Shown: positions 5,548-25,402 of the stretch, piece by piece
Layout of the letters: every line of letters begins with the position of its first letter
How positions within the stretch are numbered: position 1 is the first letter of the stretch
NCBI GenBank assembly: GCA_037442745.1
Contig: JBBIPP010000002.1
Location: 110,463-172,798 of the forward strand
Length of the DNA: 62,336 nt
Direction of reading: 5' to 3'
Origin: an archaeon
GTDB lineage: Archaea > SpSt-1190 > DYHY01
Notes under the pieces: generated by a model
The model's input: only the letters and a program-made list of their open reading frames with translations
Told to the model about the DNA's origin: nothing
The model's database searches: none
Translations under genes and position numbers: made by a program

Positions 5548-5666
5548 CTATGCCAACCCGCGGGGCTAGTCGCCCCCCAGTTCTGGGTTTCTCCTGACCC
5601 CGACAGATTGACAGCTCCCTCAAACCTTTTATAAAAAGAAACTTTCATTTTTCCAACAACCCAAAC

Positions 5667-5744
5667 GGGGGAATATGCTAGCTTGGTCCAGGCTTCGAGG
5701 TTTGGGGCCTCGCGACCCGAGTTCAAATCTCGGTTCCCCCACCA
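5667..5744 (+). tRNA. tRNA-Pro (anticodon UGG) with genomically encoded CCA
   Basis: Hand-folded. Acceptor GGGGGAA pairs with TTCCCCC. T-arm is CCGAG-TTCAAAT-CTCGG. Anticodon stem CGAGG/CCTCG carries loop TTTGGGG (U33, UGG, G37). The D-arm is a little irregular (4 bp with one mismatch, 11-nt loop carrying the GG). Confidence 0.6.
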
Positions 5745-6041
5745 AACGCATTCCAATTTTAATTGCGTTTGGTGTGGATTTTTCTTCGTACCTTTCTCAA
5801 CCCCCTCATTTGCTTTCGCCCAGTCGTGCGACATCCTTTCAGTCATCCCCACCAACTTCAAGCTCCCTTTCTTCTCCCGAAAGCATCCGCGCCGGTGTTG
5901 ACCTCGCTCGGCCCAGAGATCTTTTCCAACCAAAGTTTTCCCAAAAAACAACCGAAAACCCCCCTAAACAAGCCTTTCCCCTGAAAACACCCCCGTTTCA
6001 GAAAACCATTTTATACTACGGGCGTTTTTTTACCGGAGAGA

Positions 6042-7526: not shown

Positions 7527-7533
7527 AGCTGAA

Positions 7534-7746
7534 TTGGGCGCGCCCTCCTCATTGGAAACTGGTTCAGCTGAGAACAGCCCAGCGAAATTGGCTCCGATTT
7601 CAAGAGGAATCCTCCTATTTTACCTGCTTTTTGCCCTGATTGTCGCCCTCATTGCTTTCGCCCTAATCCGGGCGAACCCATATCGGGAAATGCTTTCCTC
7701 AAACCCCGTCTATTCAGGATTCCTAGTTGTCTCCGAATGCGGGTAA
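7534..7746 (+). CDS. Small membrane protein (hypothetical)
   Basis: A 70-aa ORF with the hydrophobic helix ILLFYLLFALIVALIAFALI. Confidence 0.3.
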   Translation: MGAPSSLETGSAENSPAKLAPISRGILLFYLLFALIVALIAFALIRANPYREMLSSNPVYSGFLVVSECG

Positions 7747-7987
7747 TATGTCGGAATTGAATGCAATTCGGATTCGGACGGCGCCGGACATTATGCGAAC
7801 AAGACTGACGGCGCGATTATCTGCGGTTTCTTCGGTCCCGCGAATTCGGAAAAGACCGCCGTGTCCAGAAGGAATTTTGTCCTGCTTGGAAGACCCCCTT
7901 ATCAGGATAACGAATTATCTTGTCTCAGGATGAGGAGCGGGGAAAAATAATGTTTTTAAAGGGCGGAGAAGGGTTCCCTCCCGTCAA

Positions 7988-8157
7988 CCCCTGGTAACTC
8001 AATCTGGCAGAGTGGTCGACTGTAGAGCCGTCCTATCCTCCAAAAAAGGGAGAGAGGGCAGCTTGGTTAGGAGCCATTCTCACAAAGAAGGTGGTTTTGG
8101 GCCCAAGGCGGCGCAGCCATCGACTTGTTGCAGGTTCAAATCCTGCCCAGGGGACCA
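7988..8157 (+). tRNA. tRNA-Tyr (anticodon GUA) with a ~93-nt intron at the canonical 37/38 position. CCA is encoded.
   Basis: Acceptor CCCCTGG pairs with CCAGGGG (the C1-G72 pair typical of archaeal tRNA-Tyr). D-stem is ACTC/GAGT. Anticodon stem GTCGA (8015-8019) carries loop CTGTAGA; the partner TCGAC lies at 8120-8124. T-arm is GCAGG-TTCAAAT-CCTGC. The intron is roughly 8027-8119. Confidence 0.75.
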
Positions 8158-8243
8158 GTTCTAATTCTTGAGGAAAACACATCCGAACTGTTCCCCCGGA
8201 CTTGCAGACAATGAAATTATTGGCTCAGCCAAGGGGACAACAA

Positions 8244-8849
8244 CTATTTGCCCAAAAAATTCCTTCCCCTGAATTCCCGTTCAATCTCCTTCCATCTTGG
8301 ACAGGAAACCAAATGGTCATTCACAATTCCCACTGCCTGCATATATGCATACACAATTGTCGGGCCTACGAAATTCATTCCCCTCTTTTTCAGGTCCTTT
8401 GAGATTTTTTCAGAGATGGACGTTTTTGCGGGAATTTCCTTCAGGGAACGAAACCTGTTAACAATCCGCTTCCCTCCGGAAAAACCCCAGAAATATTTGG
8501 AAAAGCTCCCGAACTCTTCCCTTATGCGGATGAACGCTTTCGCGTTAGAGACTGCCGAACTTATTTTCAGGCGGTTACGAATAATGCCAGGATTCCTCAT
8601 TAGCTTCTCGACCTCCCATTTCCCGAATCCGGCAACCTTGTTGAAATCAAATCCAGAGAACGCTGTTTTGTAATTCTTCCGCCTGTTCAGTATTGTCTCC
8701 CAAGAGAGACCAGCCTGCGCGCCCTCGAGAAGGAGGAACTCAAAGAGCTTTTTGTCATCAACCAAGGGTATGCCCCATTCTGAATTGTGATAAGAAAGAT
8801 AGAGCGGGTTTCCTGTTCTTGTTGCCCAAGGGCAGATTTTCCGTTTCAT
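8244..8849 (-). CDS. tag: DNA-3-methyladenine glycosylase I
   Basis: The segment LLLEGAQAGLSWETILNRRKNY is the Tag signature. Conserved Cys/His are present at both termini (CPW..., HLVSC). Confidence 0.8.
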   Translation of the reverse strand: MKRKICPWATRTGNPLYLSYHNSEWGIPLVDDKKLFEFLLLEGAQAGLSWETILNRRKNYKTAFSGFDFNKVAGFGKWEVEKLMRNPGIIRNRLKISSAVSNAKAFIRIREEFGSFSKYFWGFSGGKRIVNRFRSLKEIPAKTSISEKISKDLKKRGMNFVGPTIVYAYMQAVGIVNDHLVSCPRWKEIEREFRGRNFLGK

Positions 8850-8854
8850 TGGGA

Positions 8855-9487
8855 CTATGTAGAGGAATAATAATAGCCGGAGAGCGGGATTATTGTAGCC
8901 TTTGCCCGTTCCTCGTCTCCAACCCGAGAGCAGAGGTCGTAGTTGTCCTCGCCCTTTTCCGTCTCAATCAGGAGAATTTCATTGTAGGAATTGGCGTCGT
9001 TCTTCGGACCATAGTAATATCTCGAGTCAAGGAGGAGTTGAACTGTCTTCTTCTCGCTTGCCGAGAGCTCGACCGCTCCGTATGCCGGGCCGGAAGAATA
9101 GCCATATCCAATCGATTTCATTGAAACGCTGTCTGAGAGGACTTCTCCGAGGGCAGGCTCACTGAAAGGAGATGCCGTTTTCACAAAGGAGCTGTAGGAG
9201 ATGCCAATAGACTGGCCCTTCATTTTCCCGGTCGAATCGTAGAGACAGGCCGAGACTCTCGGAAGCTCAAACGACCGCGGAAGGAAATAGCTGTTAGTAA
9301 CAGTTATCTCCTGGATAACCACCCGCCTATTCGCGGAAGTCGAATAGTCTCTGTAGAAAATGTCCTGCCGAAGGAGCCCCTCCACCGATTTCTTTTCGAC
9401 AACAAAGGCCGGGCCGAAGGAGCTCACCGCAAAGACGAGCGCAAAGGCAATTCCGAAGAAAAAGAGTATTTTCAGGGATTTTTCCAT
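8855..9487 (-). CDS. Secreted hypothetical protein
   Basis: The N-terminal signal peptide is MEKSLKILFFFGIAFALVFAVSSFG. There are no catalytic motifs. Confidence 0.45.
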   Translation of the reverse strand: MEKSLKILFFFGIAFALVFAVSSFGPAFVVEKKSVEGLLRQDIFYRDYSTSANRRVVIQEITVTNSYFLPRSFELPRVSACLYDSTGKMKGQSIGISYSSFVKTASPFSEPALGEVLSDSVSMKSIGYGYSSGPAYGAVELSASEKKTVQLLLDSRYYYGPKNDANSYNEILLIETEKGEDNYDLCSRVGDEERAKATIIPLSGYYYSST

Positions 9488-9488
9488 C

Positions 9489-9764
9489 TCACTTCACAAC
9501 GGGCATTTTTCCCGATTTGCCGCTGAACTTCTTCATGAAATAGTATCCGAGGCCCATCATCAGGACCGAGGAGAGCGCAAGGAGCCCGAGTATCCCGTTT
9601 TTCCCAAGATTGAAAGCCTCAATAACATATCCGACAGTGAAAACATAGACGCAGATAGAGACGAGATAGAGGAGGTGGTTGAACTTGCGAAAGTTCGCAT
9701 AGAGTATTATTGCGGCAATCAGTCCAATCCAGAAAACAATTCCCCCTGTAAGTTCAGTCAGCAT
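9489..9764 (-). CDS. Small membrane protein (hypothetical)
   Basis: Three predicted TM helices. It lies 2 bp from the upstream gene. Confidence 0.4.
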   Translation of the reverse strand: MLTELTGGIVFWIGLIAAIILYANFRKFNHLLYLVSICVYVFTVGYVIEAFNLGKNGILGLLALSSVLMMGLGYYFMKKFSGKSGKMPVVK

Positions 9765-9770
9765 TTTTCT

Positions 9771-9968
9771 TCACAACCCCTTCTCCCTCAGATATTCCCC
9801 GCCAAAGAAGAACGCCCCCGCTAGGAGGACTAGGAGGAGAGTCTTTATTTCCTTTGCGAATCCGAGAATATATCCGTATGTGAAATAGCCTATTGTAATG
9901 AAAAGGAAGATTATCCCCATTATGAAAAACGCGTGCTCTATTTTCATGCCTCCCTGACAGCAAGGCAT
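9771..9968 (-). CDS. Small membrane protein (hypothetical)
   Basis: A 65-aa protein with two hydrophobic helices. Confidence 0.3.
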   Translation of the reverse strand: MPCCQGGMKIEHAFFIMGIIFLFITIGYFTYGYILGFAKEIKTLLLVLLAGAFFFGGEYLREKGL

Positions 9969-9998
9969 TTATTTAAACAATTCGTGTTTTTATCCGAT

Positions 9999-10559
9999 AT
10001 GGCGCCTGATTTTTTCCAACAAATCGCCCTTCTCGCCTCAAATCCCTCTGAGCTTTTCCGGCAGGTGAAGGGCAAAGAGAACGGGGGATTTTGGAAAACA
10101 TTCATTTTCCTCGCGACAATAGTTCTTGTCTCGGGGGTTCTCTCGGGATTCTCCGGTTTCTTTTACGGGGGAGGATATTCTTCCTTTTCGCCAATTTCAT
10201 TCATTGCGTTAAACCTTGTAGCTCTTCTCTATTCATCAGTTGTCCTAATAGTGATATCGAAGCTCTTCATCGGAAAGAACGGCTGGAAGGAGACTTTCAA
10301 GGCTGTCGCATATTCGGCAGCAATACCAATTTTCGTCAGGGCCCTGCCAATCGGCAAGATATCCACTTTTCTCCTTCCAATAGACCTCCTTGCGTTCGGA
10401 TATTCCCTCGTTCTCCTAGCAAAGGGGCTGATAATACTAAACGAGCTCTCCCTAGGAAAAGCGATTGGCGCAATAATAGTGTTTGTCCTCTTCACTCTAG
10501 GGATTTTTGCGTTCCTCCTTCTAGGAGTAATCCTCCCAAGCATCAGGGGAGTATTCTAG
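9999..10559 (+). CDS. Yip1-domain-like polytopic membrane protein
   Basis: The N-terminus MAPDFFQQIALLASNPSELFRQ is followed by 5 TM helices, resembling the Yip1/DUF1282 layout. The start was chosen at ATG 9999 to avoid overlap with the minus-strand gene. Confidence 0.45.
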   Translation: MAPDFFQQIALLASNPSELFRQVKGKENGGFWKTFIFLATIVLVSGVLSGFSGFFYGGGYSSFSPISFIALNLVALLYSSVVLIVISKLFIGKNGWKETFKAVAYSAAIPIFVRALPIGKISTFLLPIDLLAFGYSLVLLAKGLIILNELSLGKAIGAIIVFVLFTLGIFAFLLLGVILPSIRGVF

Positions 10560-10733
10560 AATATTTGAGGCAAGCGCAGAAAGGAGCCCGAATGCTTAGG
10601 AGAACCCAACCAAAAGTCTTATAAAGCAATTTTTCGGCTTCCCCGATGTGTCAGTGGTCCCTTTTCCCCCGGAAGCGCGTTCATCTATAGCAAGAGGATG
10701 CGAACAAGTGCTTTCGAGGGACAGGGAAAAGCT

Positions 10734-10809
10734 GTCCCGGTGGTGTAGTGGTCTAGCATATGAGCCTGTCACGCTTATGACTCGGGTTCGAATCCCGACC
10801 GGGACGCCA
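10734..10809 (+). tRNA. tRNA-Asp (anticodon GUC) with encoded CCA
   Basis: Acceptor GTCCCGG pairs with CCGGGAC. T-arm is TCGGG-TTCGAAT-CCCGA. Anticodon stem TGAGC/GCTTA (one G-U pair) carries loop CTGTCAC. The D-stem has two G-U pairs. Confidence 0.7.
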
Positions 10810-10884
10810 CTCGAACAAGCAACGAAGACAATGGAGATAATTCTCCCGTCTTCCGCCCTTTTTTCGGAGAAACTGGCAAAAGAA

Positions 10885-10996
10885 GGGCCGGTAGCTCAGC
10901 ATGGTAGAGCATCTGGCTTTTATTTTCAGGGGGGAGAAATCTCCCCTGGAGGAAGAAACCAGGTGGTCGTGGGTCCAAATCCCACCCGGCCCACCA
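10885..10996 (+). tRNA. tRNA-Lys (anticodon UUU) with a 35-nt intron at 37/38 (10923-10957). CCA is encoded.
   Basis: Acceptor GGGCCGG pairs with CCGGCCC. D-arm is GCTC...GAGC. Anticodon stem TCTGG/CCAGG flanks CTTTTA-[intron]-A. T-arm is GTGGG-TCCAAAT-CCCAC, with C at position 55 where U is normally found. Confidence 0.7.
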
Positions 10997-11211
10997 CGAA
11001 ACCGCAGGGACCAATTGCCCCTGCAGTTTTACGCTCCTCCTTTGCCCCAACAGCCGGCTTTCGGACGGTTAATGCGACATTCAATCAGCTCAACAGTTCG
11101 AGGATTGCTGGCGGAGAAAAATCGCAGAACTTCAAACTTCTTCATTTCGGAGGGAGGCATCTTCCGGAATTTCTGGGAAAAAAAATTTCAAAGGAGCTGT
11201 GAAAAAGGAAA

Positions 11212-12717
11212 ATGAACGATCTCGGGGAAGAACTTGTAAAGGCATTTTTGGAAGAATACGGAACTGTCCGCCACCATATCGACTCATTCAACAGCTTCAT
11301 GACCCGCGGAATGCAGGCAGTAGTTGACGAGACAGGAGAGCTTCTCCCAGCAATAATACCTCACGGGGCCAAGGAATACAGAATCCGCTTTGGGAATGTC
11401 TCTGTAGGAAACCCGGTTGTGAAGGAAGCTGACGGCTCAATGAACAAAATCCTCCCGTTCGAGGCTCGGATAAGGCAGATAACATACGAGGCTCCCATAA
11501 CTCTAGAGCTCTTCGTTGAGCAGGACGGGATAAGGAAGGATCCGGTAATTGCCGAACTCGGAAGCCTTCCAATTATGCTCAAGAGCAACGCGTGCTATCT
11601 CTCGAAAATGGGCGTGCGTGATCTAATTGAGAACGGGGAGGACCCGACAGACCCGGGCGGATATTTCGTAATTAACGGGACTGAGCGCGTCCTAATTGCA
11701 ATAGAGGATTTGGGACCGAACACACCCCTTCTTGAGGAGAAGAAGAACGGGCCGGTCACCCACGCCGCTAGGCTTTTTTCCGAGGCTCCCGGAATAAGGA
11801 TACCACATCTTTTCGAGCGCCTTCAGGACGGGACAGTCAGGGTCAGTTTCGGAAGAATTGCAAAGCTCCCTGTCGGGGTACTGGTGATGGCTCTCGGCCT
11901 TGAGAGCGATGAGGAAATAGGGAACTCGATATCCGAAAATCCAGATTTGATGGAGGACGTTATGGTCAACCTCGAGACAATTGAGGAATCAAAGAACGTT
12001 GAGGACGCCCTCGACTGGATAGGACGCCAATTGAAAATCGGGCAGGGCAAGGAATACCGCGTCCAAAGAGTCCAGGAACTGATTGACCAGTATCTGCTCC
12101 CCCACATAGGAAGGGGCCCGTCCTCCCGCAGAGAAAAAGCAATATATCTAGGGAAAATAACGGAGCGCCTGATAAAACTCCACTACGGCTTCCTGAAAGA
12201 GGACGACAAGGACCATTATTCGAACAAGCGCCTGAAGCTCGCGGGGGAACTAATGGAACAGCTTTTCCGCGCATCCTTCAAGGCAATTGTCAACGACATG
12301 AAATACTCTTTTGAGCGTATAACAAAGAGGGGAAGGGAGCCACCGATAGAGACAATTGTCAGAAGCCAGCTCCTCACAGGACGCCTTCGAAGCGCTCTTG
12401 CAACAGGATACTGGGTCGGCTCAAGAACCGGAGTTTCCCAGCATCTCCAAAGGCTCAATTACTTGGACACTCTTTCCCATTTGAGAAGGGTTCTTTCCCC
12501 CCTGACAACGTCCCAACCACATTTCGAGGCAAGGGAACTACATCCAACCCACTGGGGAAAGCTCTGCGCGTCAGAGACTCCTGAAGGACAGAACATCGGC
12601 CTCAGGAAGAACTTGGCGCTCACTGCAAGGGTTACCCACGGGACTGACGAGAGCGAAGTTAGGAAATTCCTCGCATCTAACGGAGTGGAACTCGCGGAAA
12701 ATTCTGGCAAGAAATAA
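11212..12717 (+). CDS. rpoB2: DNA-directed RNA polymerase subunit B'' (N-terminal half of split RpoB)
   Basis: The 501-aa product ends where the B' ORF begins and fits the standard archaeal operon position; assignment is by position and end-to-end size, not by a cited motif. Confidence 0.9.
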   Translation: MNDLGEELVKAFLEEYGTVRHHIDSFNSFMTRGMQAVVDETGELLPAIIPHGAKEYRIRFGNVSVGNPVVKEADGSMNKILPFEARIRQITYEAPITLELFVEQDGIRKDPVIAELGSLPIMLKSNACYLSKMGVRDLIENGEDPTDPGGYFVINGTERVLIAIEDLGPNTPLLEEKKNGPVTHAARLFSEAPGIRIPHLFERLQDGTVRVSFGRIAKLPVGVLVMALGLESDEEIGNSISENPDLMEDVMVNLETIEESKNVEDALDWIGRQLKIGQGKEYRVQRVQELIDQYLLPHIGRGPSSRREKAIYLGKITERLIKLHYGFLKEDDKDHYSNKRLKLAGELMEQLFRASFKAIVNDMKYSFERITKRGREPPIETIVRSQLLTGRLRSALATGYWVGSRTGVSQHLQRLNYLDTLSHLRRVLSPLTTSQPHFEARELHPTHWGKLCASETPEGQNIGLRKNLALTARVTHGTDESEVRKFLASNGVELAENSGKK

Positions 12718-12755
12718 TTCCAAAGGAACAAGACAAAAAGGAGACAGAGAATCAT

Positions 12756-14594
12756 ATGGCTAAAATATCGGAAAATCAGAAATTCGAAAAGGCGGACGTT
12801 TTCCTGAACGGGCGGTTTGTCGGACGGCACGAGGACGGGCGCGCGCTTGTTGAACGGCTGAAGGAAGAGAGGCGAAGCGGACGGATATTGCCTGAAACAA
12901 CAATTGCATATCTCGCCCATTTGGGAGAGGTCAGGGTATTCACGGATGCCGGAAGAGTTGTCCGGCCCCTGATAATTGTCTCGGATGGCAATCCATTGGT
13001 AGGAAAGGAGGAATTGGCAAAACTCCGAAAGAAGGAGATTTCCTGGAAAGACCTCCTTAGTGAGGGAAAAGTTGAATTTCTTGACGCTGACGAGGAAGAA
13101 GAGGCACTGGTAGCGCTCACCCCAAAGGAGCTCACCAAAAAGCACACGCACATGGAAATAGACCCTGTGACAATACTCGGGCTTCCGGCAAGCCTTGTTC
13201 CCTTTGCCAATTTCTCAAGGGGAGACCGCGTGAACTACGGAGCGTCAAAAGGGGTGAAGCAGGCGCTCGGAATATACACTGCGAACTATCTTACCCGCTT
13301 CGACACTTATTCGAACATTCTCCACTATCCCCAAAAGCCGATTGTCAGGAGCAGGCTAACAGGAGTAATCGGCTTTGACAACCATGCGGCTGGGCAGAAC
13401 TTCATTGTCGCTCTAATGCCCTGGGAAGGGTATAACATGGAAGACGCGGTTGTTATTAACAAGGGCTCAATTGAGCGGGGACTCGGGCGGAGCACATTTT
13501 ACCGGCCCTATGTCACGCAGGAGCAGAGGCATCCTTCGGGGCAGGAGGACACTATTGAAGTCCCCCAGAAGGATGTTGTCGGATACAGAATGGAGCACCT
13601 CTACAGGAATTTGGGAGAGGACGGGCTAGTTGAGCTTGAAACAAGGGTAGATAGCGACGACGTTATTATCGGGCGCACAAGTCCCCCAAGGTTCCTTGGC
13701 GCAGTCGACATATTCAGGAGAGGGACGGAGTCGAGAAGGGAGAGCTCAATTGTTGTCCGGCACGGAGAGGGCGGATGGGTTGACACTGTCCTGATAACCG
13801 AGGATCAAGAAGGCCACAAAATGGCGAAAATCCGGGTGAGGGACGATAGGATTCCGGAACTCGGTGACAAATTCTCCTCAAGGCACGGCCAGAAAGGAGT
13901 AGTCGGAATGCTAGTTGAGCAGACAGATATGCCATATTCCGAGAACGGAATAGTTCCCGACATGATAGCGAATCCCCACGGAATACCCTCAAGAATGACA
14001 GTTTCCCAGCTAATGGAAATACTGACAGGCAAGGGCGCGAGCGTTTCCGGAAAATATGTTGACGGGACAGCATTCTCAGAGAACCCGGTCGATGGGATGA
14101 AGCAAGTCCTCCTAGAGAACGGCTTTAGGCCTGACGGAAAAGAGGTCTTCTATGACGGAATTACCGGCAAGCGCTTCGAGGCCGACATATTCGTCGGAGT
14201 AATCTACTACCACAAACTCAGGCATATGGTGCTAAACAAGCTCCACGCAAGGTCAAGGGGGCCTGTGCAGATACTGACAAGGCAACCGACAGAAGGGCGT
14301 TCGAAGAAAGGCGGTCTTCGTATGGGGGAAATGGAAAAGGACTGCCTTGTTGCCCACGGAGCGTCGCTTCTCCTGAAAGAGAGGTTCGACTCGGACAAGA
14401 CCACAGTTCCAATATGCCTGTCCTGCGGAGTCGCGGCAGTATATGACAAGCAAAAGGAGAAGAGCCACTGCCCAATGTGCGGTGAGAGCGCGAAAATCGA
14501 GTTCGTCGAAGTCTCCTACGCTTTCCACCTTCTATTGCACGAACTGATGAGCATCGGGGTTTTCCCGAAATTGAGGCTTGAGAACAAGAGTTAG
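12756..14594 (+). CDS. rpoB1: DNA-directed RNA polymerase subunit B' (C-terminal half of split RpoB)
   Basis: 612 aa containing the conserved SRHGQKG and GEMEKD blocks and a C-terminal Cys4 zinc ribbon (CLSCG...CPMCG). Confidence 0.9.
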   Translation: MAKISENQKFEKADVFLNGRFVGRHEDGRALVERLKEERRSGRILPETTIAYLAHLGEVRVFTDAGRVVRPLIIVSDGNPLVGKEELAKLRKKEISWKDLLSEGKVEFLDADEEEEALVALTPKELTKKHTHMEIDPVTILGLPASLVPFANFSRGDRVNYGASKGVKQALGIYTANYLTRFDTYSNILHYPQKPIVRSRLTGVIGFDNHAAGQNFIVALMPWEGYNMEDAVVINKGSIERGLGRSTFYRPYVTQEQRHPSGQEDTIEVPQKDVVGYRMEHLYRNLGEDGLVELETRVDSDDVIIGRTSPPRFLGAVDIFRRGTESRRESSIVVRHGEGGWVDTVLITEDQEGHKMAKIRVRDDRIPELGDKFSSRHGQKGVVGMLVEQTDMPYSENGIVPDMIANPHGIPSRMTVSQLMEILTGKGASVSGKYVDGTAFSENPVDGMKQVLLENGFRPDGKEVFYDGITGKRFEADIFVGVIYYHKLRHMVLNKLHARSRGPVQILTRQPTEGRSKKGGLRMGEMEKDCLVAHGASLLLKERFDSDKTTVPICLSCGVAAVYDKQKEKSHCPMCGESAKIEFVEVSYAFHLLLHELMSIGVFPKLRLENKS

Positions 14595-14610
14595 GAAAGG
14601 AGAGGAAAAA

Positions 14611-17235
14611 ATGGCACAACCAATAATCAAGAAAAGAATAGGCTCAATAGATTTCGGGCTTCTAGGTCCACAGGCAATAAGGAAACTTTCCACCCTTGAA
14701 GTGACGGTGTCCGAACTATACGACCAGGACGGCTTTCCCGTGGAAGGGGGACTAATGGACCCCCGTATGGGAATTGTCGACCCAGGTCTTCGGTGCAGGA
14801 CGTGCGGGTCAAGGGTCGGGGAATGCCCGGGCCATTTCGGGTATATTGAGCTAGCAAGACCGGTAATCCACATAAAATTCTCGGAAATAATATACCGGAT
14901 ACTCTCCGCAACCTGCCACGAATGCGGGCGGATAAAGATTGATGAGAAAGCCAACCAGAAATACAAAAAGCTCTACGACAATATTGATCGCGAGCAGACA
15001 GACATTTCCAAATGGAAGCTTGTCCCTGAAATCTACAGGCTCGCTGCAAGGGGGAAGAATTGCCCGCACTGCGGGAAGAAGACCCTTCCGATAAAGTTCG
15101 AAAAGCCGACAACATACTATCGGGACAAGGATAAGCTGACGCCAATTGACGTCAGGGACCAATTGGAAAAAGTCCCGAATTCAGACCTCCTGCTTCTCGG
15201 AATTGACCAGAAATCGGCAAGGCCGGAATGGATGGTAACGACCGCATTGGCAGTGCCTCCAGTTACAGTTAGACCTTCAATTACTCTTGACTCGTCAGAG
15301 CGGGCGGAAGACGACCTGACCCACAAGCTAGTCGATATTATGAGAATTAACCTAAGGCTGAAGGAGAACATGGGAGCAGGAGCTCCGTCAGTAATCATCG
15401 AGGATTTGTGGGAACTCCTGCAGTACCACGTCACCACATTCACAGACAACGAGGTCGCGTCAATCCCCCCGGCAAGGCACAGGGCAGGACGCGTTCTCAA
15501 GGGAATTGCCCAGAGAATAAAGAGCAAGGAAGGGCGCTTTAGATACAACCTGGCCGGAAAGCGCGTCAACTTCTCAGCAAGAACGGTTATTTCCCCTGAC
15601 TCGAAGCTATCAATTGAGGAAGTTGGAATCCCGAGCGAAGTCGCAAAGGAACTCACAGTCCCCGAAATTGTCACTGAGCGTAACCTTGACTGGCTGAAGA
15701 AGCTCATACTTAACGGACCTTCCAAGGTCGGAGGGGCGAACTATGTCCTTCTCCCGGACGGCCGGAAGAAGAGAATTACCGAGGATGACAAGGAACAGGT
15801 AGCTGAAGAATTGAAGCCGGGAATGGTTGTAGAACGCCATGTTGTTGACGGGGACATTGTCCTTTTCAACAGGCAGCCCTCCCTTCACAGGCTCTCGATA
15901 ATGGCGCACAGGGCCCGGGTGCTTCCCTACCACTCTTTCAGGCTGAACCCAGCGGTCTGCCCTCCTTATAACGCGGACTTTGACGGGGACGAAATGAACC
16001 TGCACGTTCCGCAGACCCTTGAAGCGTCAATAGAGGCCGAGGAACTGATGACTGTCTCAAAACAGATAAGGTCTCCTAGGTACGGAGGACCGATTGTCGG
16101 AGGCCATCAGGACCATATAACTGCTCTGTATCTGATGACTCTTCCGGAAACTGAGGTTTCGAGGAACGAGGCTAACCAGCTTCTCTTCGAAGCCGGGATT
16201 GAGGATGTCTCAATTGAGGGCGAGAAAATCTCCGGAAAAGAGCTTTTCTCCATGATTATTCCAAAGGACGCGACCCTCTCATTCAGGAGCAAGGCATGCA
16301 AGTTCTACGGATGCAGGAACTGCACGCCCGAGACTTGCGCAACAAAGACCCATGTACTGATTGAAAAGGGGGTTCTAAAGACCGGCGTAATTGACGGAGC
16401 GGCAATAGGATCTGGGGAGGGAAAGCTCCTTGACTATTTCACCCAGAAATACGGCCCGATAGCCTCGAAGAAATTCATTGACAAGTTCACGCAGCTCGGC
16501 CTCGCCTATTTCAGGAAGACCGGCTTTTCCGTAGGAATTGAGGATTTCGAAATATCGGAATCAGCCAAAGCTTCAGTAGCCCAAGTGCTGTCTGAAGGGG
16601 AAGCGGAATCCCTTAACCTTATTGAGGAATACAAGGCAGATAGATTGGAAGCCCTTCCGGGAATGACCGCAAGGCAGACATTGGAAATGGAGATAATGGG
16701 TGCCTTGAACAGGGCAAGGGACAAGGCTGTCGAAATTGTCAGGCAGTTTGTCAAGCCGACCAATCCGGCAATAATAATGGCAATCTGCGGGGCGCGAGGC
16801 AAGGTGCTAAACGTCGCCCAGATGGCGGCCTGCTTGGGCCAGCAGGCAATCAGCGGAGGGCGTGTCAAGCGCGGATACTATGAGAGGACGCTCCCCCATT
16901 TTGTGAAAGGGGACATTGGAGCGGCTTCAAAAGGATTCGTCAAGAATTCCTATGGAAGCGGACTCGACCCGTTCGAATTCTACTGGGTCGCAATGGCCGG
17001 AAGGGAAGGGTTGACCGACACCTCTATGAGAACGCCGAAATCAGGATACATGTACAGGCGTCTTTCGAACGCTCTACAGGACCTATTTGTCGATTATGAC
17101 CTCTCAGTCAGGGACTCGAGAGGGGGAATAGTCCAGTTCAAGTACGGGGAGGACGGCCTTGACCCGTCGAAGACTGACCAGGGCCTTCTTTCAATAAAGA
17201 AAACAAGGGCGCTCCAGGGAAAGAAGGGGGTTTAG
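14611..17235 (+). CDS. rpoA1: DNA-directed RNA polymerase subunit A'
   Basis: Zinc motifs CRTCGSRVGECPGHFG and the catalytic NADFDGDEMN are present. The start is set at MAQPIIKK (14611), preceded by GGAGAGG. The track's upstream ATG at 14578 would overlap rpoB1. Confidence 0.9.
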   Translation: MAQPIIKKRIGSIDFGLLGPQAIRKLSTLEVTVSELYDQDGFPVEGGLMDPRMGIVDPGLRCRTCGSRVGECPGHFGYIELARPVIHIKFSEIIYRILSATCHECGRIKIDEKANQKYKKLYDNIDREQTDISKWKLVPEIYRLAARGKNCPHCGKKTLPIKFEKPTTYYRDKDKLTPIDVRDQLEKVPNSDLLLLGIDQKSARPEWMVTTALAVPPVTVRPSITLDSSERAEDDLTHKLVDIMRINLRLKENMGAGAPSVIIEDLWELLQYHVTTFTDNEVASIPPARHRAGRVLKGIAQRIKSKEGRFRYNLAGKRVNFSARTVISPDSKLSIEEVGIPSEVAKELTVPEIVTERNLDWLKKLILNGPSKVGGANYVLLPDGRKKRITEDDKEQVAEELKPGMVVERHVVDGDIVLFNRQPSLHRLSIMAHRARVLPYHSFRLNPAVCPPYNADFDGDEMNLHVPQTLEASIEAEELMTVSKQIRSPRYGGPIVGGHQDHITALYLMTLPETEVSRNEANQLLFEAGIEDVSIEGEKISGKELFSMIIPKDATLSFRSKACKFYGCRNCTPETCATKTHVLIEKGVLKTGVIDGAAIGSGEGKLLDYFTQKYGPIASKKFIDKFTQLGLAYFRKTGFSVGIEDFEISESAKASVAQVLSEGEAESLNLIEEYKADRLEALPGMTARQTLEMEIMGALNRARDKAVEIVRQFVKPTNPAIIMAICGARGKVLNVAQMAACLGQQAISGGRVKRGYYERTLPHFVKGDIGAASKGFVKNSYGSGLDPFEFYWVAMAGREGLTDTSMRTPKSGYMYRRLSNALQDLFVDYDLSVRDSRGGIVQFKYGEDGLDPSKTDQGLLSIKKTRALQGKKGV

Positions 17236-18435
<1,200 letters not shown>

Positions 18436-18472
18436 GTTTTAAAAAAGAGGAAAAAAGGGGAAAAGGAACAAA

Positions 18473-18760
18473 ATGGAACAGAAAGAATTCGTCAAAGCCC
18501 TCTCCAAGGCAATCTCAGAGAACAAGCTCGTCTTAGGAACAGAAACAAACCTGAAAATGCTCTCGGCTGGAAAGCTTGAGATAATTGCATATTCCGAGAA
18601 CACCCCTGAAAAGGTGAAGAAGGCAATAGCGGAAAAGCTCGGAGGAGCAAAGGAACATCCGTTCTCCGGAAACAACATAGAGCTTGGCGAGCTCTCGAAG
18701 AGGCCCCACAGGGTTTCAGTAGTCGGAATTGCAAAAACCGAGAAGAAAAAAGCTAACTAG
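18473..18760 (+). CDS. rpl30e: Ribosomal protein L30e
   Basis: 95 aa (KLVLGTETNLKMLSAGKLEIIAYSENTPEKVKKAIAEKL). It sits in the canonical archaeal position between rpoA2 and nusA. Confidence 0.85.
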   Translation: MEQKEFVKALSKAISENKLVLGTETNLKMLSAGKLEIIAYSENTPEKVKKAIAEKLGGAKEHPFSGNNIELGELSKRPHRVSVVGIAKTEKKKAN

Positions 18761-18784
18761 TCCGGAAAAAATGGGGGAGAAAAA

Positions 18785-19258
18785 GTGGGAATTACTCTGA
18801 AAATATCCTCCTCTTCAGGCTCTCCCGGAAAATCCGTCAAAATGGGGATGGACCATTTCAAGTTCATCAACCTTTTTGAGTCAATGACGAACGCGCATGT
18901 CAAGGACTGCGTAATTCTCCCAGACAGGCTTGTCTTCATTATTAACGAGGGGGAAATCGGCCTTGCAATAGGAAAAGGCGGGGCGAACGTAAAGAAGGTT
19001 GAGACAGCGCTCCAAGGGAAGAAAGTCGACCTGATTGAGTATTCAAAGGACCCGATCCAGTACCTGAAGAACATCCTCTATCCGATGAAAATAAAGAGCG
19101 CCTACAATTCGGAAAAGTCCGACGGGAAGAAGGTCTTGAATATTGACCTAGATTCCCATGACAAGAAGAAGCTCCTTTCAAACGGGAAGAAGAGGCTGAC
19201 TGAGGCCAAGGGATATTTCCTCAGGCACCATAAGGTGGACGACATTGAGGTTGTTTAG
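18785..19258 (+). CDS. nusA: Archaeal NusA-like termination factor (two KH domains). The start may be the internal ATG at 18842.
   Basis: A KH motif is present (LAIGKGGANVKKVETAL). Size and position are as in archaeal RNAP operons. Confidence 0.8.
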   Translation: MGITLKISSSSGSPGKSVKMGMDHFKFINLFESMTNAHVKDCVILPDRLVFIINEGEIGLAIGKGGANVKKVETALQGKKVDLIEYSKDPIQYLKNILYPMKIKSAYNSEKSDGKKVLNIDLDSHDKKKLLSNGKKRLTEAKGYFLRHHKVDDIEVV

Positions 19259-19329
19259 GGCGCCTTGTTTTTGGGTTTCTTCAATAAATCTCGAAAACAT
19301 ATTTAATTGGATTTTAATTGTTTGAGCTA

Positions 19330-20385
19330 ATGGAAAAGTTTACATTTGTAGATTTAATTAATCGAGTTTTCAAAGAATCTAAAACACCTTTATCACCAAA
19401 AGAAATTTGGGAAAAAGCAATTCAGTTAGATTTAGTTTCTCGATTAAATTCAAAATGAAAAACTCCTTGGGAGGCCATCAATTCATACATTTATGACGAT
19501 GTTTCAAAAAGCGTAACTCCGCATTTCAAGAAATTCGGAACAAGACCAACAAGATTTCATTTTGCTAATTTTGCAGGAAACGTGCTTGACTTACCAGAAA
19601 AAAATTTCACCGGGAAGTTCAATGAAAGAGATTCACATACCTTGTGAATTTTGCTGGTCGCAATAACAAATTCGGTGTGCTAATAAAACAATACATCACG
19701 AAAATTCCAGAAAGACAAGAATCTGGAAGTCGTCTTGGTTACATTCCGATCTCGTTTGGTGTATTTTCCTTTTCAAGAAGATGAATACACATCTTCCTTT
19801 ATAGACTTACAAAAAGAAGTATCAATTTCTTTAGTAAGATTTTTTTCTTTTGAAATGAAAATAAATCTAAACTTTAGCAGTATAAGAGAATCATATTTTC
19901 AGGCAGTTTCAAATTCAAGCTGGGCAAACGAGGGCTATTTAGTTGCGTTGAACATAAATAAAGAATCCGACTTTCTTCAAGAACCTCACAGGTTGGCGGA
20001 TGCATTTGGAATTGGTATAATAGAATTAGACGCAGAGAATGTTGCTGAAAGTAAGATATTAATTCGTGCAAAAGAGAACAAAGAATTAGATTGGAATACG
20101 TTAAATCGCCTAGCAGAAAAAAATGGCGATTTTGGTGTCTTTCTCAAAGATATAGTTAAGGACTTGAGTGTCTGTTGTTACTGGAAGATACGATTCAATT
20201 CTTTCTATCGAAGAGTTATTTGCTTGGATAAAAGAGAAGAAAATAACGAAAGAACTTCTCTAACTTTTCTCAAAAACAAACACATATTCGTGCGCGAGAA
20301 GCAGGAAATTATACTTTATGCTCTGGGGATACCAAAAGCCTGTCGCTCGGCAGTTGTGTTGTTCTTTGATTATTATCTCCTTTAG
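19330..20385 (+). pseudogene. Degraded gene with an N-terminal HARE-HTH-like winged-helix domain and a C-terminal nuclease-like region. It is interrupted by at least 3 in-frame stops (TGA at 19456, TGA at 19644, TAA at 19678-19683).
   Basis: The frame-1 reading gives MEKFTFVDLINRVFKESKTPLSPKEIWEKAIQLDLVSRLNSK*KTPWEAINSYIYDDVSKSVTPHFKKFGTRPTRFHFANF. The same frame continues into the 216-aa ORF 19735..20385. Confidence 0.4.
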
Positions 20386-21090
20386 GGAAAAACCAGCCTC
20401 CAGAAACTTTTCCATTGTCCTGAATCCCAAAGGAACCACTTTTCCCCGTTTACGGGTGTCTCCCATCATTACTGCGCAGAACTTGCTTTGTTTGAGGACA
20501 GAGTAAAATTCTTTTGCAATCATCCCTATTTCTTTTATGAATTCTTCGACTGAAAGAGAGGACAAATCACTTTCATCCTCATCACTATACGAGATGATGT
20601 TCGCATAATGAGGATGGGCACAGACAAAGTCAACGCTTTCCTTTCCGAAATAAGCTACGACTTTCTTGGCGTCCCCGATCTTTAGTACCGGATCGAACGA
20701 ATCCGGAAACTCAAAAGAGCTTCTTGCTTTCGAGAGTTTTATTGCATCTGAGCTTAGGTCAATTCCTATTCCTCTCCTGCCGAGAAGTTTCGCCTCTATT
20801 GCAGTTGTCCCGCTTCCAATGAACGGATCAAGAACAACATCTCCTTTTTTCGAATAGCGGAGTATGAGGTTTCTCGGAATTTCGGGCGCCCAATTCCCGC
20901 GATAATCTCCCTTGTGGGTTGCCCAACTGCCCCTCCTAGGAAAACTCCAATTGGTGGTTGCCTGCATCTTGAATTCATTCGGCTCAGTAGCTAAAGCACT
21001 TTTTTTCTTTTCAAAAGGGCTAGAAACCAATTTATTAGTTTTCAACAAAGGTTTCTCTTTAGATTGTACCAATTTTGTTCCTTCTGCCAT
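20260..21090 (-). CDS. Orphan SAM-dependent N6-adenine/N4-cytosine-type DNA methyltransferase with atypical motif order and an HPHY motif
   Basis: EIPRNLILRYSKKGDVVLDPFIGSGTTAIEAKLLGRRGIGIDL is the motif I / SAM-binding block of N6/N4 methyltransferases. Downstream, VDFVCAHPHY occupies the place of the (D/N/S)PPY catalytic motif. The ORF is intact. Confidence 0.65.
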   Translation of the reverse strand: MAEGTKLVQSKEKPLLKTNKLVSSPFEKKKSALATEPNEFKMQATTNWSFPRRGSWATHKGDYRGNWAPEIPRNLILRYSKKGDVVLDPFIGSGTTAIEAKLLGRRGIGIDLSSDAIKLSKARSSFEFPDSFDPVLKIGDAKKVVAYFGKESVDFVCAHPHYANIISYSDEDESDLSSLSVEEFIKEIGMIAKEFYSVLKQSKFCAVMMGDTRKRGKVVPLGFRTMEKFLEAGFSLKEIIIKEQHNCRATGFWYPQSIKYNFLLLAHEYVFVFEKS

Positions 21091-21186
21091 TTTAGAAGAT
21101 TTCTTTTTTTCTCATTTATACTTGGACACAGTCTTTCCGTTATTAATTTTAGAGAAATTTAAAAGGGGCCTTTTCACTCCGGAAAT

Positions 21187-22017
21187 GTGCCGACTGAGAA
21201 GTTCCAATTGCCAGTTTTCCTCAAATGGGCGGGAGGAAAGCGCCAGCTTCTGCCGGAACTAACGAAGAGGTTTCCCAAAAGTTTTTCAGGTTATGTAGAG
21301 CCTTTCTTGGGCGGGGGAACCGTTTTCTTTCAGGTGAAAAAAGACAGATCACCGAAAAAGGTGTTTCTTTCAGACATAAACGAGTATCTTGTAAATTGTT
21401 TCATCTAAGTAAGGGATTCTCCTGAAAAACTCTCAGATCTTTTGGAAGAACACCGGAAAAACCACTCGAAAGAGCATTATTACAAAGTAAGAGCACTTAA
21501 CGGTGGCCTAGACAAGGCAGAAAGCGCAGCAAGGTTGATTTACCTTAACAAAACCTGTTTCAACGGCCTTTATAGGGTTAATTCCCAAAACGAGTTCAAT
21601 GTCCCGTACGGAAAACACAAGCACCCGGCAATTCCATCTAGAGATTTGATTCTTTCCGCCAGTTATTTCCTCAAAGACGCGAAAATAAAGAAAATGTCTT
21701 TCGATAAGCTCGATTGGATTGCCAAGAATGGCGATTTTGTTTATTTTGACCCTCCTTATTATCCGATGTCAAAAACAGCCAATTTCACGGCATATTCGAC
21801 CGGAGGATTCGCGGAGGAGGATCAAATTAAACTATCTGAGATTTTCAAGAAACTTTCAGAAAGGGGCTGTTTTGTTATGCTCTCAAACAGCGACCATCCC
21901 AAAATAAAGGAAATTTATTCAGAATTCAAAATAGCTTCGGTTCTCGCTAGAAGGTCGATAAATTCCGTTTCCTCTGGTAGGGGCCCAGTAAAAGAACTGA
22001 TAATAACGAACTATTGA
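21187..22017 (+). pseudogene. Dam-like (D12-class) N6-adenine DNA methyltransferase interrupted by an in-frame TAA at 21406-21408
   Basis: The N-terminal part has LKWAGGKRQLLPELTKRFPKSFSGYVEPFLGGGTVFF (motif I). The C-terminal part has VYFDPPY (motif IV). Both parts are in frame 1 and are separated only by the TAA. Confidence 0.7.
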
Positions 22018-22538
22018 CTTTCTTCGGGAAGACCGAAATACTCAAGAGGTATTTCGTTGAAGAAATAACCACACCCAACAGATTTTACATATTCCAAAGT
22101 GTCCTTATATTCCGGCTTTTGGAACCAGTTATTCAGAACATATACATATTTTACCTGCGTTTTCAAGGAAGAGAATAGTTTTTTGTATTGTTTCAGCTTA
22201 AAGTCGCATGTTTGGAGTTTTTCATCAACTGATCTAGGGCTGTGCTGGAACTTCATCTCAACAATATGCACGACATTTCTCCTTAATATGAAAACTGCCT
22301 CGTCCGGAACAAGTTTTTTCGAGAGTATTTTTTTGTAGTCAATTCCTTTAGGAGCAAGGAATCCTTTGTAAAGGACGTGCTTTCAATAAAGTTCCGCAAC
22401 AACTTCTTTGTTGAAAAATATCTTGTTTCCAGAAACAGAATAACCTTTCAGTTTCCTGAATAAATCAGCTATTTTTACCCTATCCTCGAAAAGCAAGCCA
22501 ACCACTGTATTTGCGCCACCAAAACCACCCTTTTTCAT
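22011..22538 (-). pseudogene. PD-(D/E)XK restriction-endonuclease-like gene interrupted by an in-frame TGA at 22383-22385
   Basis: The minus-strand reading gives MKKGGFGGANTVVG...VAELY*KHVLYKGFLAPKGIDYKKILSKKLVPDEAVFILRRNVVHIVEMKFQH.... The PD...(19)...E-M-K arrangement fits a PD-(D/E)XK core. It is convergent with the Dam pseudogene. Confidence 0.5.
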
Positions 22539-22679
22539 AATCCCAAAAATATGATACGCAAATAAAATACCTTGCCTTGATTTTCCTCCAATCTAGCCAA
22601 AATCCCTTGCTTCAATTAGAAAACCCCTAAAATTACCTCCAAATACTTTAAATTCCGGCAACTCTTTCCCTTCCAAGAA

Positions 22680-23849
22680 ATGTTCCAAAAGCCCAAAAAT
22701 TCCCCCCCTTGCCCTAGGAAGAAAATCGAGTCACTGAACCTGTCAGCGAAAAGGGCGTCTGAGGGCTTCTCGCTTCTTTTCCTCGGAAAAACAATCCTTC
22801 TCTCAATATTCTTCGGATATTTCCTCCTCTACCACTCGCTCGGCTTTCCGGCAGGCCTCTCAATTCTCCTGATTTCATTCCCTCTGTTCTCGACAATTCT
22901 TTCCAAATACAGGGAATACCTGAAAATTAGGGAGATTTCCGGATTTTCCCGCCCGGACGAATTCCACACACTTTTCGTTGAAATCGAGCGCCAGAGACTT
23001 TTTTCAAAAATATCGCTTTTCCTTTCGGGCGGGCTCTCCCTAGCGTTCGGGCACATACTTTTTCCGCAATTCATCTCTGGATATCTCGACCTCTTCTCAG
23101 TCGAGGCTTCCGCATCCGCCTTCCTCGTTTTCTCCCTAGTTTTCCTCGGAACATTCATTGTCCCGGCATTCGCAAGATATTCCCTAGCAACGAAGACCAA
23201 AGGGACTGGCAGGCACGAGGAACTAGAAGAGACCCTCGGCCTTGTCGAACTGAAAACGCGGGCGCTCTCCCTTTTCCCGGCAATTTATTTCCTGATTTTC
23301 CTCCTCTTCCTCCTTGGAGGGGACAAAAAAATTCTTGTCTGGTTAATTGCAGTCTCATCACTCTTAATGGCAGGGGCAATAATTTCATTTTACCTGGAGT
23401 CAGAGCTTCTAATAAGAAAAAGACTGGCAAAGGAAGGGGTTCTTCCGGCAAAAGACGAAAGAATTGTGGCTACCTTCTTCGGAATAACCAGTTTGGGAAC
23501 TTATCCGAATTTCCACCTGCCGTTCTCAACTGAGCGGGAGAATTCCCTTCTCCTTACAAACAGGAGGATAGTTTTCCTCAAAATCCCCGGGAACAAAAAG
23601 ACTGCTCCTGAGATTGCGCGGGTTGGGAAGGAAATTGAGAGAAAGGGATTATCCGAACTCTTGAAACTGGGGAAAAATTCCCTTGAATATTTCGAGATTT
23701 CCCGGGCAGAACTCAAGGGAAAAGGGCTTGAGCTAGACATTGAGGCAAAGGACGGGCGGAAATACCGCCACCTTCTCCTAGATAGGGAGGATTCCGGGCG
23801 CCTCAGCGCCCACCTGAAAACGCAGATTTCCCACAAATTCACTGCCTGA
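22680..23849 (+). CDS. Polytopic membrane protein with a C-terminal bacterial-PH-like (YdbS/YdbT-type) domain
   Basis: Six or more TM helices are followed by LLLTNRRIVFLKIPGNKKT...LEYFEISRAELKGKGLELDIEAKDGRKYRHLLLD, a bPH-like pattern. GC content matches the host. Confidence 0.45.
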   Translation: MFQKPKNSPPCPRKKIESLNLSAKRASEGFSLLFLGKTILLSIFFGYFLLYHSLGFPAGLSILLISFPLFSTILSKYREYLKIREISGFSRPDEFHTLFVEIERQRLFSKISLFLSGGLSLAFGHILFPQFISGYLDLFSVEASASAFLVFSLVFLGTFIVPAFARYSLATKTKGTGRHEELEETLGLVELKTRALSLFPAIYFLIFLLFLLGGDKKILVWLIAVSSLLMAGAIISFYLESELLIRKRLAKEGVLPAKDERIVATFFGITSLGTYPNFHLPFSTERENSLLLTNRRIVFLKIPGNKKTAPEIARVGKEIERKGLSELLKLGKNSLEYFEISRAELKGKGLELDIEAKDGRKYRHLLLDREDSGRLSAHLKTQISHKFTA

Positions 23850-23913
23850 ACTTGCTGATTTTCCCTAGTTGAAAACTCTTAAAAAGGCTGGAACCCGCGG
23901 ATATTTCCGAAAA

Positions 23914-24351
23914 ATGGCAAAAAAACCGAAAGGCCTATTCGCAGCAGCAAAGCTCACAAAGAGAAGGAAGAAATTCCGGCTCTCCCAGAAGGGTTTCAGG
24001 CAGGTATTCTACGGAACGCGCCTCAAAGCAGACCCCCTGAAAAAGGCGCCACAGGCAAAGGGAATTGTCCTAGAAAAAGTCGGAGTTGAAGCGAAACAGC
24101 CCCACTCCGGAATCAGGAAGTGCGTCCGGGTACAGCTTTTGAAGAACGGAAAGCAGATTACAGCAATGACCCCGGGCGACAAGGCAATAACTTTCATTGA
24201 CGAGCACGACGAAGTCGAAGTCGAGGGAATCGGAGGGGCAATGGGCCGCGCAATGGGAGATATTCCGGGAGTGCGCTGGATTGTCACAAAGGTCAACGGA
24301 ATCGCGGTCCTCGAGCTCAGACGCGGAAAGAAGGAGAAGAAGAGGCGCTAG
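23914..24351 (+). CDS. rps12: 30S ribosomal protein S12
   Basis: [22 protein letters not shown]...[13 protein letters not shown]...VTKVNG. The start is set at ATG 23914 to give the usual 145-aa archaeal length. Confidence 0.85.
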
Positions 24352-25036: not shown

Positions 25037-25402
25037 CCTAGCCCCTGCCATGTTCCGAATGGCATTCGGGAAGCTTCTTACAACAATTGCATCCAAAATA
25101 AGCTCTCAATCCGGGAAATACTGAAACCGGCGAAAGCGCTTGAGAAAACCGGGATGAGAATGCGCTATTTCAACATCTGAGATCCTAACAAGTTCGATTT
25201 CAACACGCCAATTCACCGGAGAACCTCCCAGAAAAAGGAGATTTAGGACGCTTTCAATTCCCTGAAGAAATACATTGAAAAGTTCAGATAATTCCCCTAC
25301 TCAAAAAAGGACTGCCGGAAAAAAGTTGACTGGACAATTATGTGCATTTTTCTCCAAAGAGCATATAACCAAAAATGTTTTACTATTGCAGAGAGGGGAA
25401 GA

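Follow-up and report, generated by a model that had tools for sequence, protein, structure and literature searches.

The question raised by this locus is how a block of low-GC DNA carrying methyltransferase and nuclease genes came to lie within the RNA polymerase/ribosomal-protein array of an archaeon, and how much of what it encodes is still in working order. The block, termed here the islet, follows nusA in a stretch of 62,336 nucleotides (the window; contig JBBIPP010000002.1, positions 110,463 to 172,798), and an original prediction made from the sequence alone had read it as foreign DNA in which a restriction-modification (R-M) system had decayed after acquisition to leave a solitary methyltransferase. 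Taken as a whole the locus is probably best explained as a horizontally acquired, decayed DpnII-type cassette, with GATC as its probable target, accompanied by the dead gene of an HrgA-family nuclease. The three genes of the cassette are referred to as M1 (a DpnM-like methyltransferase), MT1 (an N6/N4-type methyltransferase, the M2 of the cassette) and R (a small PD-(D/E)XK nuclease).

Insertion of the islet

The fall in GC content that had been noticed from the nusA stop (19258) to about 22620 is borne out, the value dropping from about 0.49 to 0.38. GC is 0.504 across rpoA'-nusA (14578-19258), 0.380 across the islet and 0.481-0.496 in the genes after it, and when the islet was set against 524 host windows of 3.3 kb taken from the rest of the 62-kb window (mean 0.493, standard deviation 0.013, minimum 0.464) it gave a z of -8.8. 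The k-mer profile agrees, since the tetranucleotide L1 distance of the islet to the host was 0.443, about twice the maximum for any host window (0.213). Within the islet the HrgA pseudogene has a GC of 0.33, compared to 0.37-0.43 for the cassette.

Comparison of the junction in related genomes, which had been proposed as a way of defining the boundaries, yielded both an empty site and the boundaries themselves. A metagenome contig with approximately 90% nucleotide identity (L066) matches the window over 11140-19259 and then again from 22764, the gap between the two blocks being 135 bases in L066 and 3.5 kb in the window. In L146 (91% identity) the site is empty and there are 75 bases from nusA to the membrane-protein gene that lies beyond the islet, and the islet is likewise missing at this junction in the more distant L001. 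In L003 and L004 (Altiarchaeota), in Methanobacteria and in others rps12 comes immediately after nusA, and all outgroups lack the islet. Since L066, L146 and L001 have an empty site, the islet is an insertion specific to this strain, about 3.3 kb long. Its DNA is foreign, as its composition had led the original prediction to propose; in none of these three relatives or the outgroups did the same genes occur at the junction with host-like composition. The search for a nearest donor was less rewarding, as for none of the four islet genes does the identity of the closest homologues exceed 62%, and these are scattered over Bacteria and DPANN archaea, so that no single donor emerges.

It is scarcely credible that the islet was instead present here in the ancestor and that the relatives have lost it by deletion. 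Four genomes of the clade could be compared and the contig of a fifth (L002) stops at the nusA stop, which leaves such a history a little room, but it would need three independent deletions (in L066, L146 and L001) in addition to absence in all outgroups, and it would have to accommodate a strongly non-host composition and homologues as distant and as scattered as those just described. The L002 contig (DYHY01000001.1, 135.8 kb) breaks off precisely with the stop codon of nusA (locus position 11861), and the interruption of an assembly at this very junction is a hint that the DNA there varies between strains.

Alignment with L066 and L146 narrowed the junctions to about 20-25 bases, whilst the intergenic sequence of L001 is too diverged for their placement. 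The left junction lies at about 19286 (+/- about 25 bases), past a T-rich run, and the right junction at about 22617. The T-rich run after the nusA stop is likely to be a terminator and the TTTAAAT box beyond the right junction is likely to be the promoter of the membrane-protein gene, and it would be because the acquired DNA sits between the two that its insertion was tolerated in so conserved an array. The position that had been given for the islet, between nusA and rps12, is right as to the interval, but the membrane-protein gene separates the islet from rps12.

No open reading frame (ORF) in the islet encodes an integrase, transposase or recombinase, and there is no match to Rfam. There is no tRNA target at the islet, the sole tRNAs in the window being at 5667 and 10734, and no significant flanking repeats were found, just a 7-base CTTCAAT at 19280 and 22611 that is possibly due to chance. 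The islet thus lacks the features that define an integrative mobile element, i.e. a recombinase, a tRNA/att target and flanking direct repeats.

Three genes of one DpnII-type cassette

M1 is a methyltransferase of the D12 class, as found in DpnII-type systems. It matches PF02086 (222 bits) and TIGR00571 (280 bits), and its best solved relative is DpnM itself, the first of the two methyltransferases in the DpnII system of the pneumococcus (PDB 2dpm, E = 8e-75, 255 bits), with which it aligns over the full length. A second methyltransferase of a different class, MT1, lies 96 bases away. It matches PF01555 (94 bits) and, over its full length, the PADLOC Type II methyltransferase model (295 bits), and its best homologues are 59-62% identical. 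Compared with enzymes of the beta class it is circularly permuted, for its residues 63-130 align to the motif I region in the C-terminal part of PDB 2zie and its residues 135-213 to the motif IV region in the N-terminal part. A search of encoding contigs for exact copies of MT1 (276 and 235 amino acids) and of the membrane protein found none. R converges on M1 with an overlap of 7 bases and has the PD...(D/E)XK motif on an alpha/beta core. It is not an endonuclease of the DpnII/MboI family, and a match to PF04556 was found nowhere in the islet.

The association of these genes can be followed in other genomes. In C. thermocellum (L092) a D12 methyltransferase is followed by a DpnII endonuclease (PF04556) and then by an MT1 homologue of 54% identity, and in L075 a single operon holds a D12 methyltransferase, a small nuclease 47% identical to R and an MT1 homologue of 62% identity. 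Cassettes made up of a D12 methyltransferase, a DpnII endonuclease and an MT1 homologue occur in L092, L122, L126, L127 and L129, and in many viral contigs too an MT1 homologue comes third in a DpnII-type cassette. Among 19 MT1 contexts outside the window there was a D12 methyltransferase within 4 kb in 13, a DpnII endonuclease in 8 and the small nuclease in 4. Members of the R family immediately follow a methyltransferase, either a DpnA-like beta enzyme or one of the D12 class, in L076, L080, L083 and L065, in a Leuconostoc plasmid and in 17 of 27 viral loci; the former arrangement, often with a 4-base overlap, is that of L076, L080, L083 and the drg/NgoAXI locus of Neisseria gonorrhoeae, and the latter that of the Leuconostoc plasmid and many viral contigs. 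Because the homologues of MT1, R and the D12 methyltransferase sit together elsewhere, M1, R and MT1 can be taken as one system, which to judge from these comparisons is a cassette of the DpnII type whose two methyltransferases are accompanied by a nuclease other than the canonical one.

The lesions and the stage of decay

The Dam-like methyltransferase had been predicted to carry a single in-frame TAA, and this is indeed present in M1 at 21406-21408, where DpnM has a Gln; the DPPY motif is present. The single TGA that had been assigned to the PD-(D/E)XK endonuclease was likewise found in R (22383-22385, minus strand), but it is not the only damage, for R also has a G102R change (codon 22233-22235, AGA) in the invariant GSVDEK motif, at a position that is Gly in 120 of 120 homologues. 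As a result of the lesions in R and M1 the cassette has ceased to be a restriction system: with the TAA, the TGA, G102R and the altered motif of MT1 described below it does not have the intact restriction and modification genes that a working system requires. If columns conserved in at least 95% of homologues are considered, M1 differs at 2 of 38 and R at 2 of 57.

MT1 had been described as an intact orphan. Its ORF is without interruption, with a probable start at the ATG at 20967 that would give a protein of 235 amino acids, but its catalytic motif IV reads HPHY. Of 124 relatives 122 have HPPY, HPHY occurs in the window protein alone, and the other exception has no recognisable motif. In addition, 6 of 92 conserved columns differ (P161H and five more, three of which fall at columns that are invariant in 123 of 123 homologues), whereas homologues usually differ at 0-2 columns and just one of the 123 exceeds the six of MT1. 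The altered motif and the excess of changes at conserved sites suggest that MT1 is probably drifting or decaying as well, and it is rather unlikely that it is still active. Nor does MT1 resemble an orphan methyltransferase, which would have no cognate restriction gene nearby and a pattern of conservation that fits retained activity, since a pseudogene of the linked nuclease family lies 0.9 kb away and its homologues form the third gene of DpnII-type cassettes.

These observations bear on the proposal that there were two independent systems here, and that decay left a functional, solitary MT1 which still methylates the host and has possibly been kept for a regulatory role. The ORF is open while all three of its neighbours carry stops, motif I (DPFIGSGTT) is intact, 86 of the 92 conserved positions are kept, and solitary methyltransferases descended from R-M systems are common. 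However, its homologues occur alongside a D12 methyltransferase and a nuclease as members of three-gene cassettes, which speaks against a separate system, and both HPHY and a number of conserved-column changes matched or passed by so few homologues speak against a functional survivor, so that this history appears quite unlikely. The original prediction was therefore correct in that the cassette is decaying, but the healthy survivor that it envisaged is poorly supported.

A different possibility is that the stops are errors of assembly or consensus, or minority alleles, and that the cassette is intact and active. The sequence does come from a metagenome assembly, and R and M1 each have but a single nonsense codon. 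Nevertheless, truncated products of 73, 191, 51 and 216 amino acids are recorded exactly in each of two assemblies, the one represented by an NCBI contig (172.8 kb) and the other by a Logan contig (43.2 kb) that was built independently, and the stops are thus not an artefact of one assembler. Stops of the substitution type are also atypical of assembler errors, and the islet contains independent missense changes (G102R and P161H) and a frameshifted HrgA gene whilst the flanking host genes rpoA', rpoA'', nusA and rps12 have clean reading frames. Assembly error, which had been named at the outset as something that could undo the reading of the islet as decayed, is accordingly very improbable. 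An alternative genetic code or recoding was also considered and was ruled out: the host genes are normal with standard stops, and the lesions are a mixture of TGA, TAA, frameshifts and missense changes.

The HrgA-family pseudogene

The first gene of the islet had been described as a HARE-HTH gene with at least three stops, which is correct but understates the damage. Reading in a single frame shows four stops, there are at least four frameshifts (at about 19640-19760 and about 20170), and the TGA at 19456-19458 takes the place of a Gly that is invariant in 119 of 119 homologues. On conceptual translation 98% of the length aligns, at 47% identity, with proteins of 310-324 amino acids, some of which are named HrgA, and the gene has the architecture of the HrgA/DUF511 family, with an N-terminal HARE-HTH and a C-terminal PD-(D/E)XK domain in about 320 amino acids, as a pseudogene. 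Its end overlaps the stop of MT1 by 4 bases. With 24 of 105 conserved columns changed, it is a gene that is long dead, or was dead on arrival. The counts of lesions and of altered conserved columns indicate that the cassette of R, M1 and MT1 is, by comparison, at an early stage of decay and that HrgA is far more eroded.

The HrgA family has been described as a winged helix joined to a PD-(D/E)XK domain, of unknown function and without a positional link to methyltransferases (PMC3045609). The idea that HrgA was the partner of the adjacent methyltransferase was ruled out, since none of 10 other contexts of HrgA had an adjoining GATC-type methyltransferase (one of the ten has a weak D12 match, 22%, about 1.5 kb away), in agreement with that report. 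As the family stands alone in these ten contexts, its adjacency to MT1 may be coincidental, and the gene is best regarded as that of a stand-alone nuclease, separate from the cassette.

The R family

R belongs to a family of 2,023 homologues of about 175 amino acids that are found in Bacteria, DPANN-like archaea and viral contigs and that are unnamed in 120 of the 120 listed. The window copy of R has no match in Pfam, NCBIfam or PDB, its homologue P0126 has no PADLOC match, and there was no match in cultured phage genomes. The PD...ExK residues are nevertheless invariant across the homologues. A Foldseek search against PDB gave weak matches only (E >= 0.006), all to PD-(D/E)XK folds, and the best matches of the predicted fold of the family are to Type II restriction enzymes and nickases.

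At least eight loci (L095, L097-L101, L124 and L128) have an R homologue beside a canonical DpnII endonuclease, and because of this co-occurrence R could be an accessory nuclease or a second isospecific enzyme rather than the restriction enzyme. The stronger form of this argument holds that R serves GATC methylation systems as an accessory nuclease and that the islet at no time encoded a classical restriction enzyme. It draws on the same loci, on the lack of a match to any PADLOC or NCBIfam restriction-enzyme model and on the unnamed state of the listed homologues. On the other hand, R is the sole nuclease beside a methyltransferase in L076, L083, L065, L105, L117, L119-121 and the Leuconostoc plasmid, and the 4-base start/stop overlap that is frequent there is typical of a two-gene Type II layout. 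The invariant catalytic residues and the predicted fold also favour a restriction enzyme, and there are known systems, e.g. SsuDAT1I, in which two GATC endonucleases share one specificity. A purely accessory role is on balance unlikely, and R is treated here as the putative restriction enzyme of the cassette.

Two side observations concern the family. The eight loci with a canonical endonuclease are IMG/VR contigs with composite GATC-type clusters, in which up to two methyltransferase classes accompany the DpnII-family endonuclease and R, and this suggests that in these viral or proviral contigs two nucleases are stacked on shared methylation. In N. gonorrhoeae (NZ_CP119140.1, L065) there is an unannotated, frameshifted R homologue of 49% identity at 10933-11470, directly 3' of a truncated DpnIIB-like methyltransferase and adjoining drg in the NgoAXI locus, and it is not mentioned in PMC4269198 or PMC6789123.

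The target of the cassette

Evidence on the target comes from the company that these genes keep and from the composition of the host. The C. thermocellum cassette Cthe_1511-1513 is a system predicted by REBASE, and in this organism GATC is m6A-methylated and extracts have an MboI-like activity (PMC6791906). The gonococcal locus is the GATC-related NgoAXI/drg, with a methyltransferase that is DpnIIB-like (PMC4269198, PMC6789123). In the host DNA of the window (1-19258 and 22680-62336) GATC is the most depleted 4-mer, with 55 observed against 132 expected (a ratio of 0.42, z = -8.3). The ratio is 0.31-0.43 in the islet-free relatives L066, L146 and L001 and 0.13-0.17 in the Altiarchaeota loci L003 and L004, and GATC is not depleted in L002 (0.90) or in Methanobacterium (0.95-1.13). 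This suggests that the lineage has long been exposed to GATC-directed restriction, but it does not prove what the target of the window cassette was. The similarity of M1 to DpnM, the synteny with C. thermocellum, the neisserial locus and the host composition together indicate that the cassette was probably GATC-specific. A wider proposal, which we put forward tentatively and hold to be a little short of an even chance, is that the R family consists of uncharacterised GATC-directed restriction endonucleases that replace or stack with DpnII/MboI, in which case the GATC depletion of the lineage would record long pressure from such systems.

The host and the neighbouring genes

The array within which the islet lies has a split rpoB, rpoA' (14578-17235), rpoA'' (17242-18435), L30e (18473-18760) and nusA (18785-19258), and continues with rps12 (23869-24351) and then rps7. 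The RpoA'' of the window is 82% identical to that of L001, an unclassified archaeal genome, 75% to that of L002, which is labelled Candidatus Micrarchaeum, and 63% to that of L003, a Candidatus Altiarchaeota genome, and these identities indicate that the host is an uncultivated archaeon with kinship to all three and so related to the Altiarchaeota. The coordinates of the islet and its flanks are given in Table 1.

Table 1. Features of the islet and of the DNA on either side of it, in window coordinates
Feature	Position	Strand	Evidence
Host spacer after the nusA stop, with T-rich run TTGTTTTTGGGTTTC	19259..19286	+	alignment to L066 and L146, in which the site is empty
Low-GC inserted islet, about 3.33 kb, GC 0.38	19287..22617	.	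composition; site empty in L066, L146 and L001
HrgA-family pseudogene (HARE-HTH + PD-(D/E)XK, former DUF511)	19330..20263	+	Pfam HARE-HTH, 36 bits; homologues; frame analysis
MT1, circularly permuted N6/N4-type DNA methyltransferase, open ORF	20260..21090	-	PF01555, PADLOC, PDB 2zie alignment
His161 codon CAT of MT1, catalytic motif IV HPHY	20608..20610	-	relatives read HPPY
Divergent intergenic region between MT1 and M1, 96 bases	21091..21186	.	gene coordinates
M1, DpnM-like D12-class (alpha) adenine methyltransferase gene, one TAA	21187..22017	+	PDB 2dpm, TIGR00571, PF02086
R, small (175 amino acids) PD-(D/E)XK nuclease gene, one TGA	22011..22538	-	homologues, invariant residues, fold evidence
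Host spacer resuming, with TTTAAAT TATA-like box (22647-22653)	22618..22679	+	box common to L066 and L146
Host-like membrane-protein gene, GC 0.48, outside the islet	22680..23849	+	between the islet and rps12

The membrane protein has 389 amino acids and no match in Pfam, NCBIfam or PADLOC. It is 82% identical in L066, is also present in L146, and is 36% identical to a shorter protein of 235 amino acids in L001. Its gene is lineage-specific and fast-evolving, and is missing in Altiarchaeota and Methanobacteria, where nusA abuts rps12. Downstream of rps7 the window strain has a second, host-derived pseudogene, the remnant of an aminotransferase gene (25109-25285) with an internal deletion of about 1 kb and an in-frame TGA (NIG to NI*), the same gene being intact (401-417 amino acids) in L066, L146 and L001. 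Disabling changes of the G-to-T or C-to-A kind have occurred in this gene (a Gly codon to TGA at about 25175), in HrgA (GGA to TGA at 19456-19458) and in MT1 (CCT to CAT at 20608-20610), and this number is too small for a mutational bias to be claimed.

A proposed history of the locus

The sequence of events that would best fit these results begins with the horizontal acquisition by the window strain of a defence islet of approximately 3.3 kb, which would have entered the short stretch that separates the end of the rpo-L30e-nusA unit from the promoter of the gene after it. The islet would have had two modules: one the gene of a stand-alone HrgA-family nuclease, which is by now badly degraded, and the other a DpnII-type Type II cassette of M1, M2 and R. 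While the cassette was intact, GATC without methylation would have been cut by R, and the host would have been protected through methylation of its GATC sites by M1 and M2. R would then have been lost through its nonsense codon and the Gly-to-Arg change beside the active site, and M1 through its nonsense codon, whilst M2, with an open frame but a Pro-to-His change in HPPY and more changes at conserved sites than is usual, is probably drifting.

A number of points weigh against this account. Both assemblies possibly derive from the same reads, which would leave room for a polymorphism in the population. The junctions are resolved only to about 20-25 bases, and the searches for a recombinase, a tRNA, an Rfam match and repeats found no mechanism of mobility. 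The loss of MT1 activity through the Pro-to-His change in motif IV is argued from sequence comparison, and the GATC target from homology and synteny; D12-class enzymes with other targets exist. Finally, the R family is uncharacterised, and its members stand beside a canonical DpnII endonuclease in the eight or more loci listed above.

The locus offers a clean, datable case of an R-M cassette landing in a conserved archaeal array and then decaying, bracketed by three relatives with an empty site. The order of the damage can be read from the sequence, with a single nonsense codon in R and in M1, an MT1 that is open but hit in its motif, and an HrgA gene that is far more eroded. Of further use beyond the locus are the R family, whose consistent linkage to GATC methyltransferases makes it a candidate new family of restriction enzymes, and the marked avoidance of GATC in this lineage. 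Of the elements of the islet the R family alone is moderately novel, and the current understanding of R-M biology is unchanged.

Comparison with known systems

The closest named comparison is with cassettes of the DpnII/MboI/LlaDCHI type, such as dpnM-dpnA-dpnB of S. pneumoniae and Cthe_1511-1513 of C. thermocellum. Like these, the window cassette is compact, is without mobility genes and consists of a DpnM-like D12 methyltransferase, a second methyltransferase of another architecture and one nuclease. It differs in that the nuclease is a PD-(D/E)XK protein of 175 amino acids from an unnamed family and not PF04556, the second methyltransferase is circularly permuted and not DpnA, the genes are divergent and convergent rather than in a single operon, and R and M1 are pseudogenes. 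The HrgA gene invites comparison with HrgA of Helicobacter pylori, which replaces hpyIIIR in the GATC-specific HpyIII locus. Both have a HARE-HTH/winged helix and a PD-(D/E)XK domain in about 320 amino acids and adjoin a GATC-type methyltransferase gene, but the window copy is a pseudogene, and even for the H. pylori protein no function has been established (PMC3045609).

There is also a likeness to the solitary methyltransferases that arise by R-M decay, since an open methyltransferase frame lies beside inactivated restriction genes. Unlike those, MT1 has an altered catalytic motif and excessive changes at conserved sites, so that its retention under selection is not indicated, and the other methyltransferase of the cassette is dead too. 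As to its setting, the islet resembles the leuS/dam/drg (NgoAXI) locus of Neisseria and the 'minimal mobile elements', in which a low-GC restriction cassette lies between housekeeping genes without mobility genes. The neisserial locus has a DpnIIB-like methyltransferase and an R homologue (49%), both disrupted; it differs from the window in being bacterial, in having the methyl-dependent Drg endonuclease, in lacking a D12 methyltransferase in most strains and in that its R homologue is unannotated. The insertion after nusA is therefore an event of an ordinary kind, for restriction cassettes placed between housekeeping genes without genes for mobility are already known, the neisserial leuS/dam/drg locus being one example.

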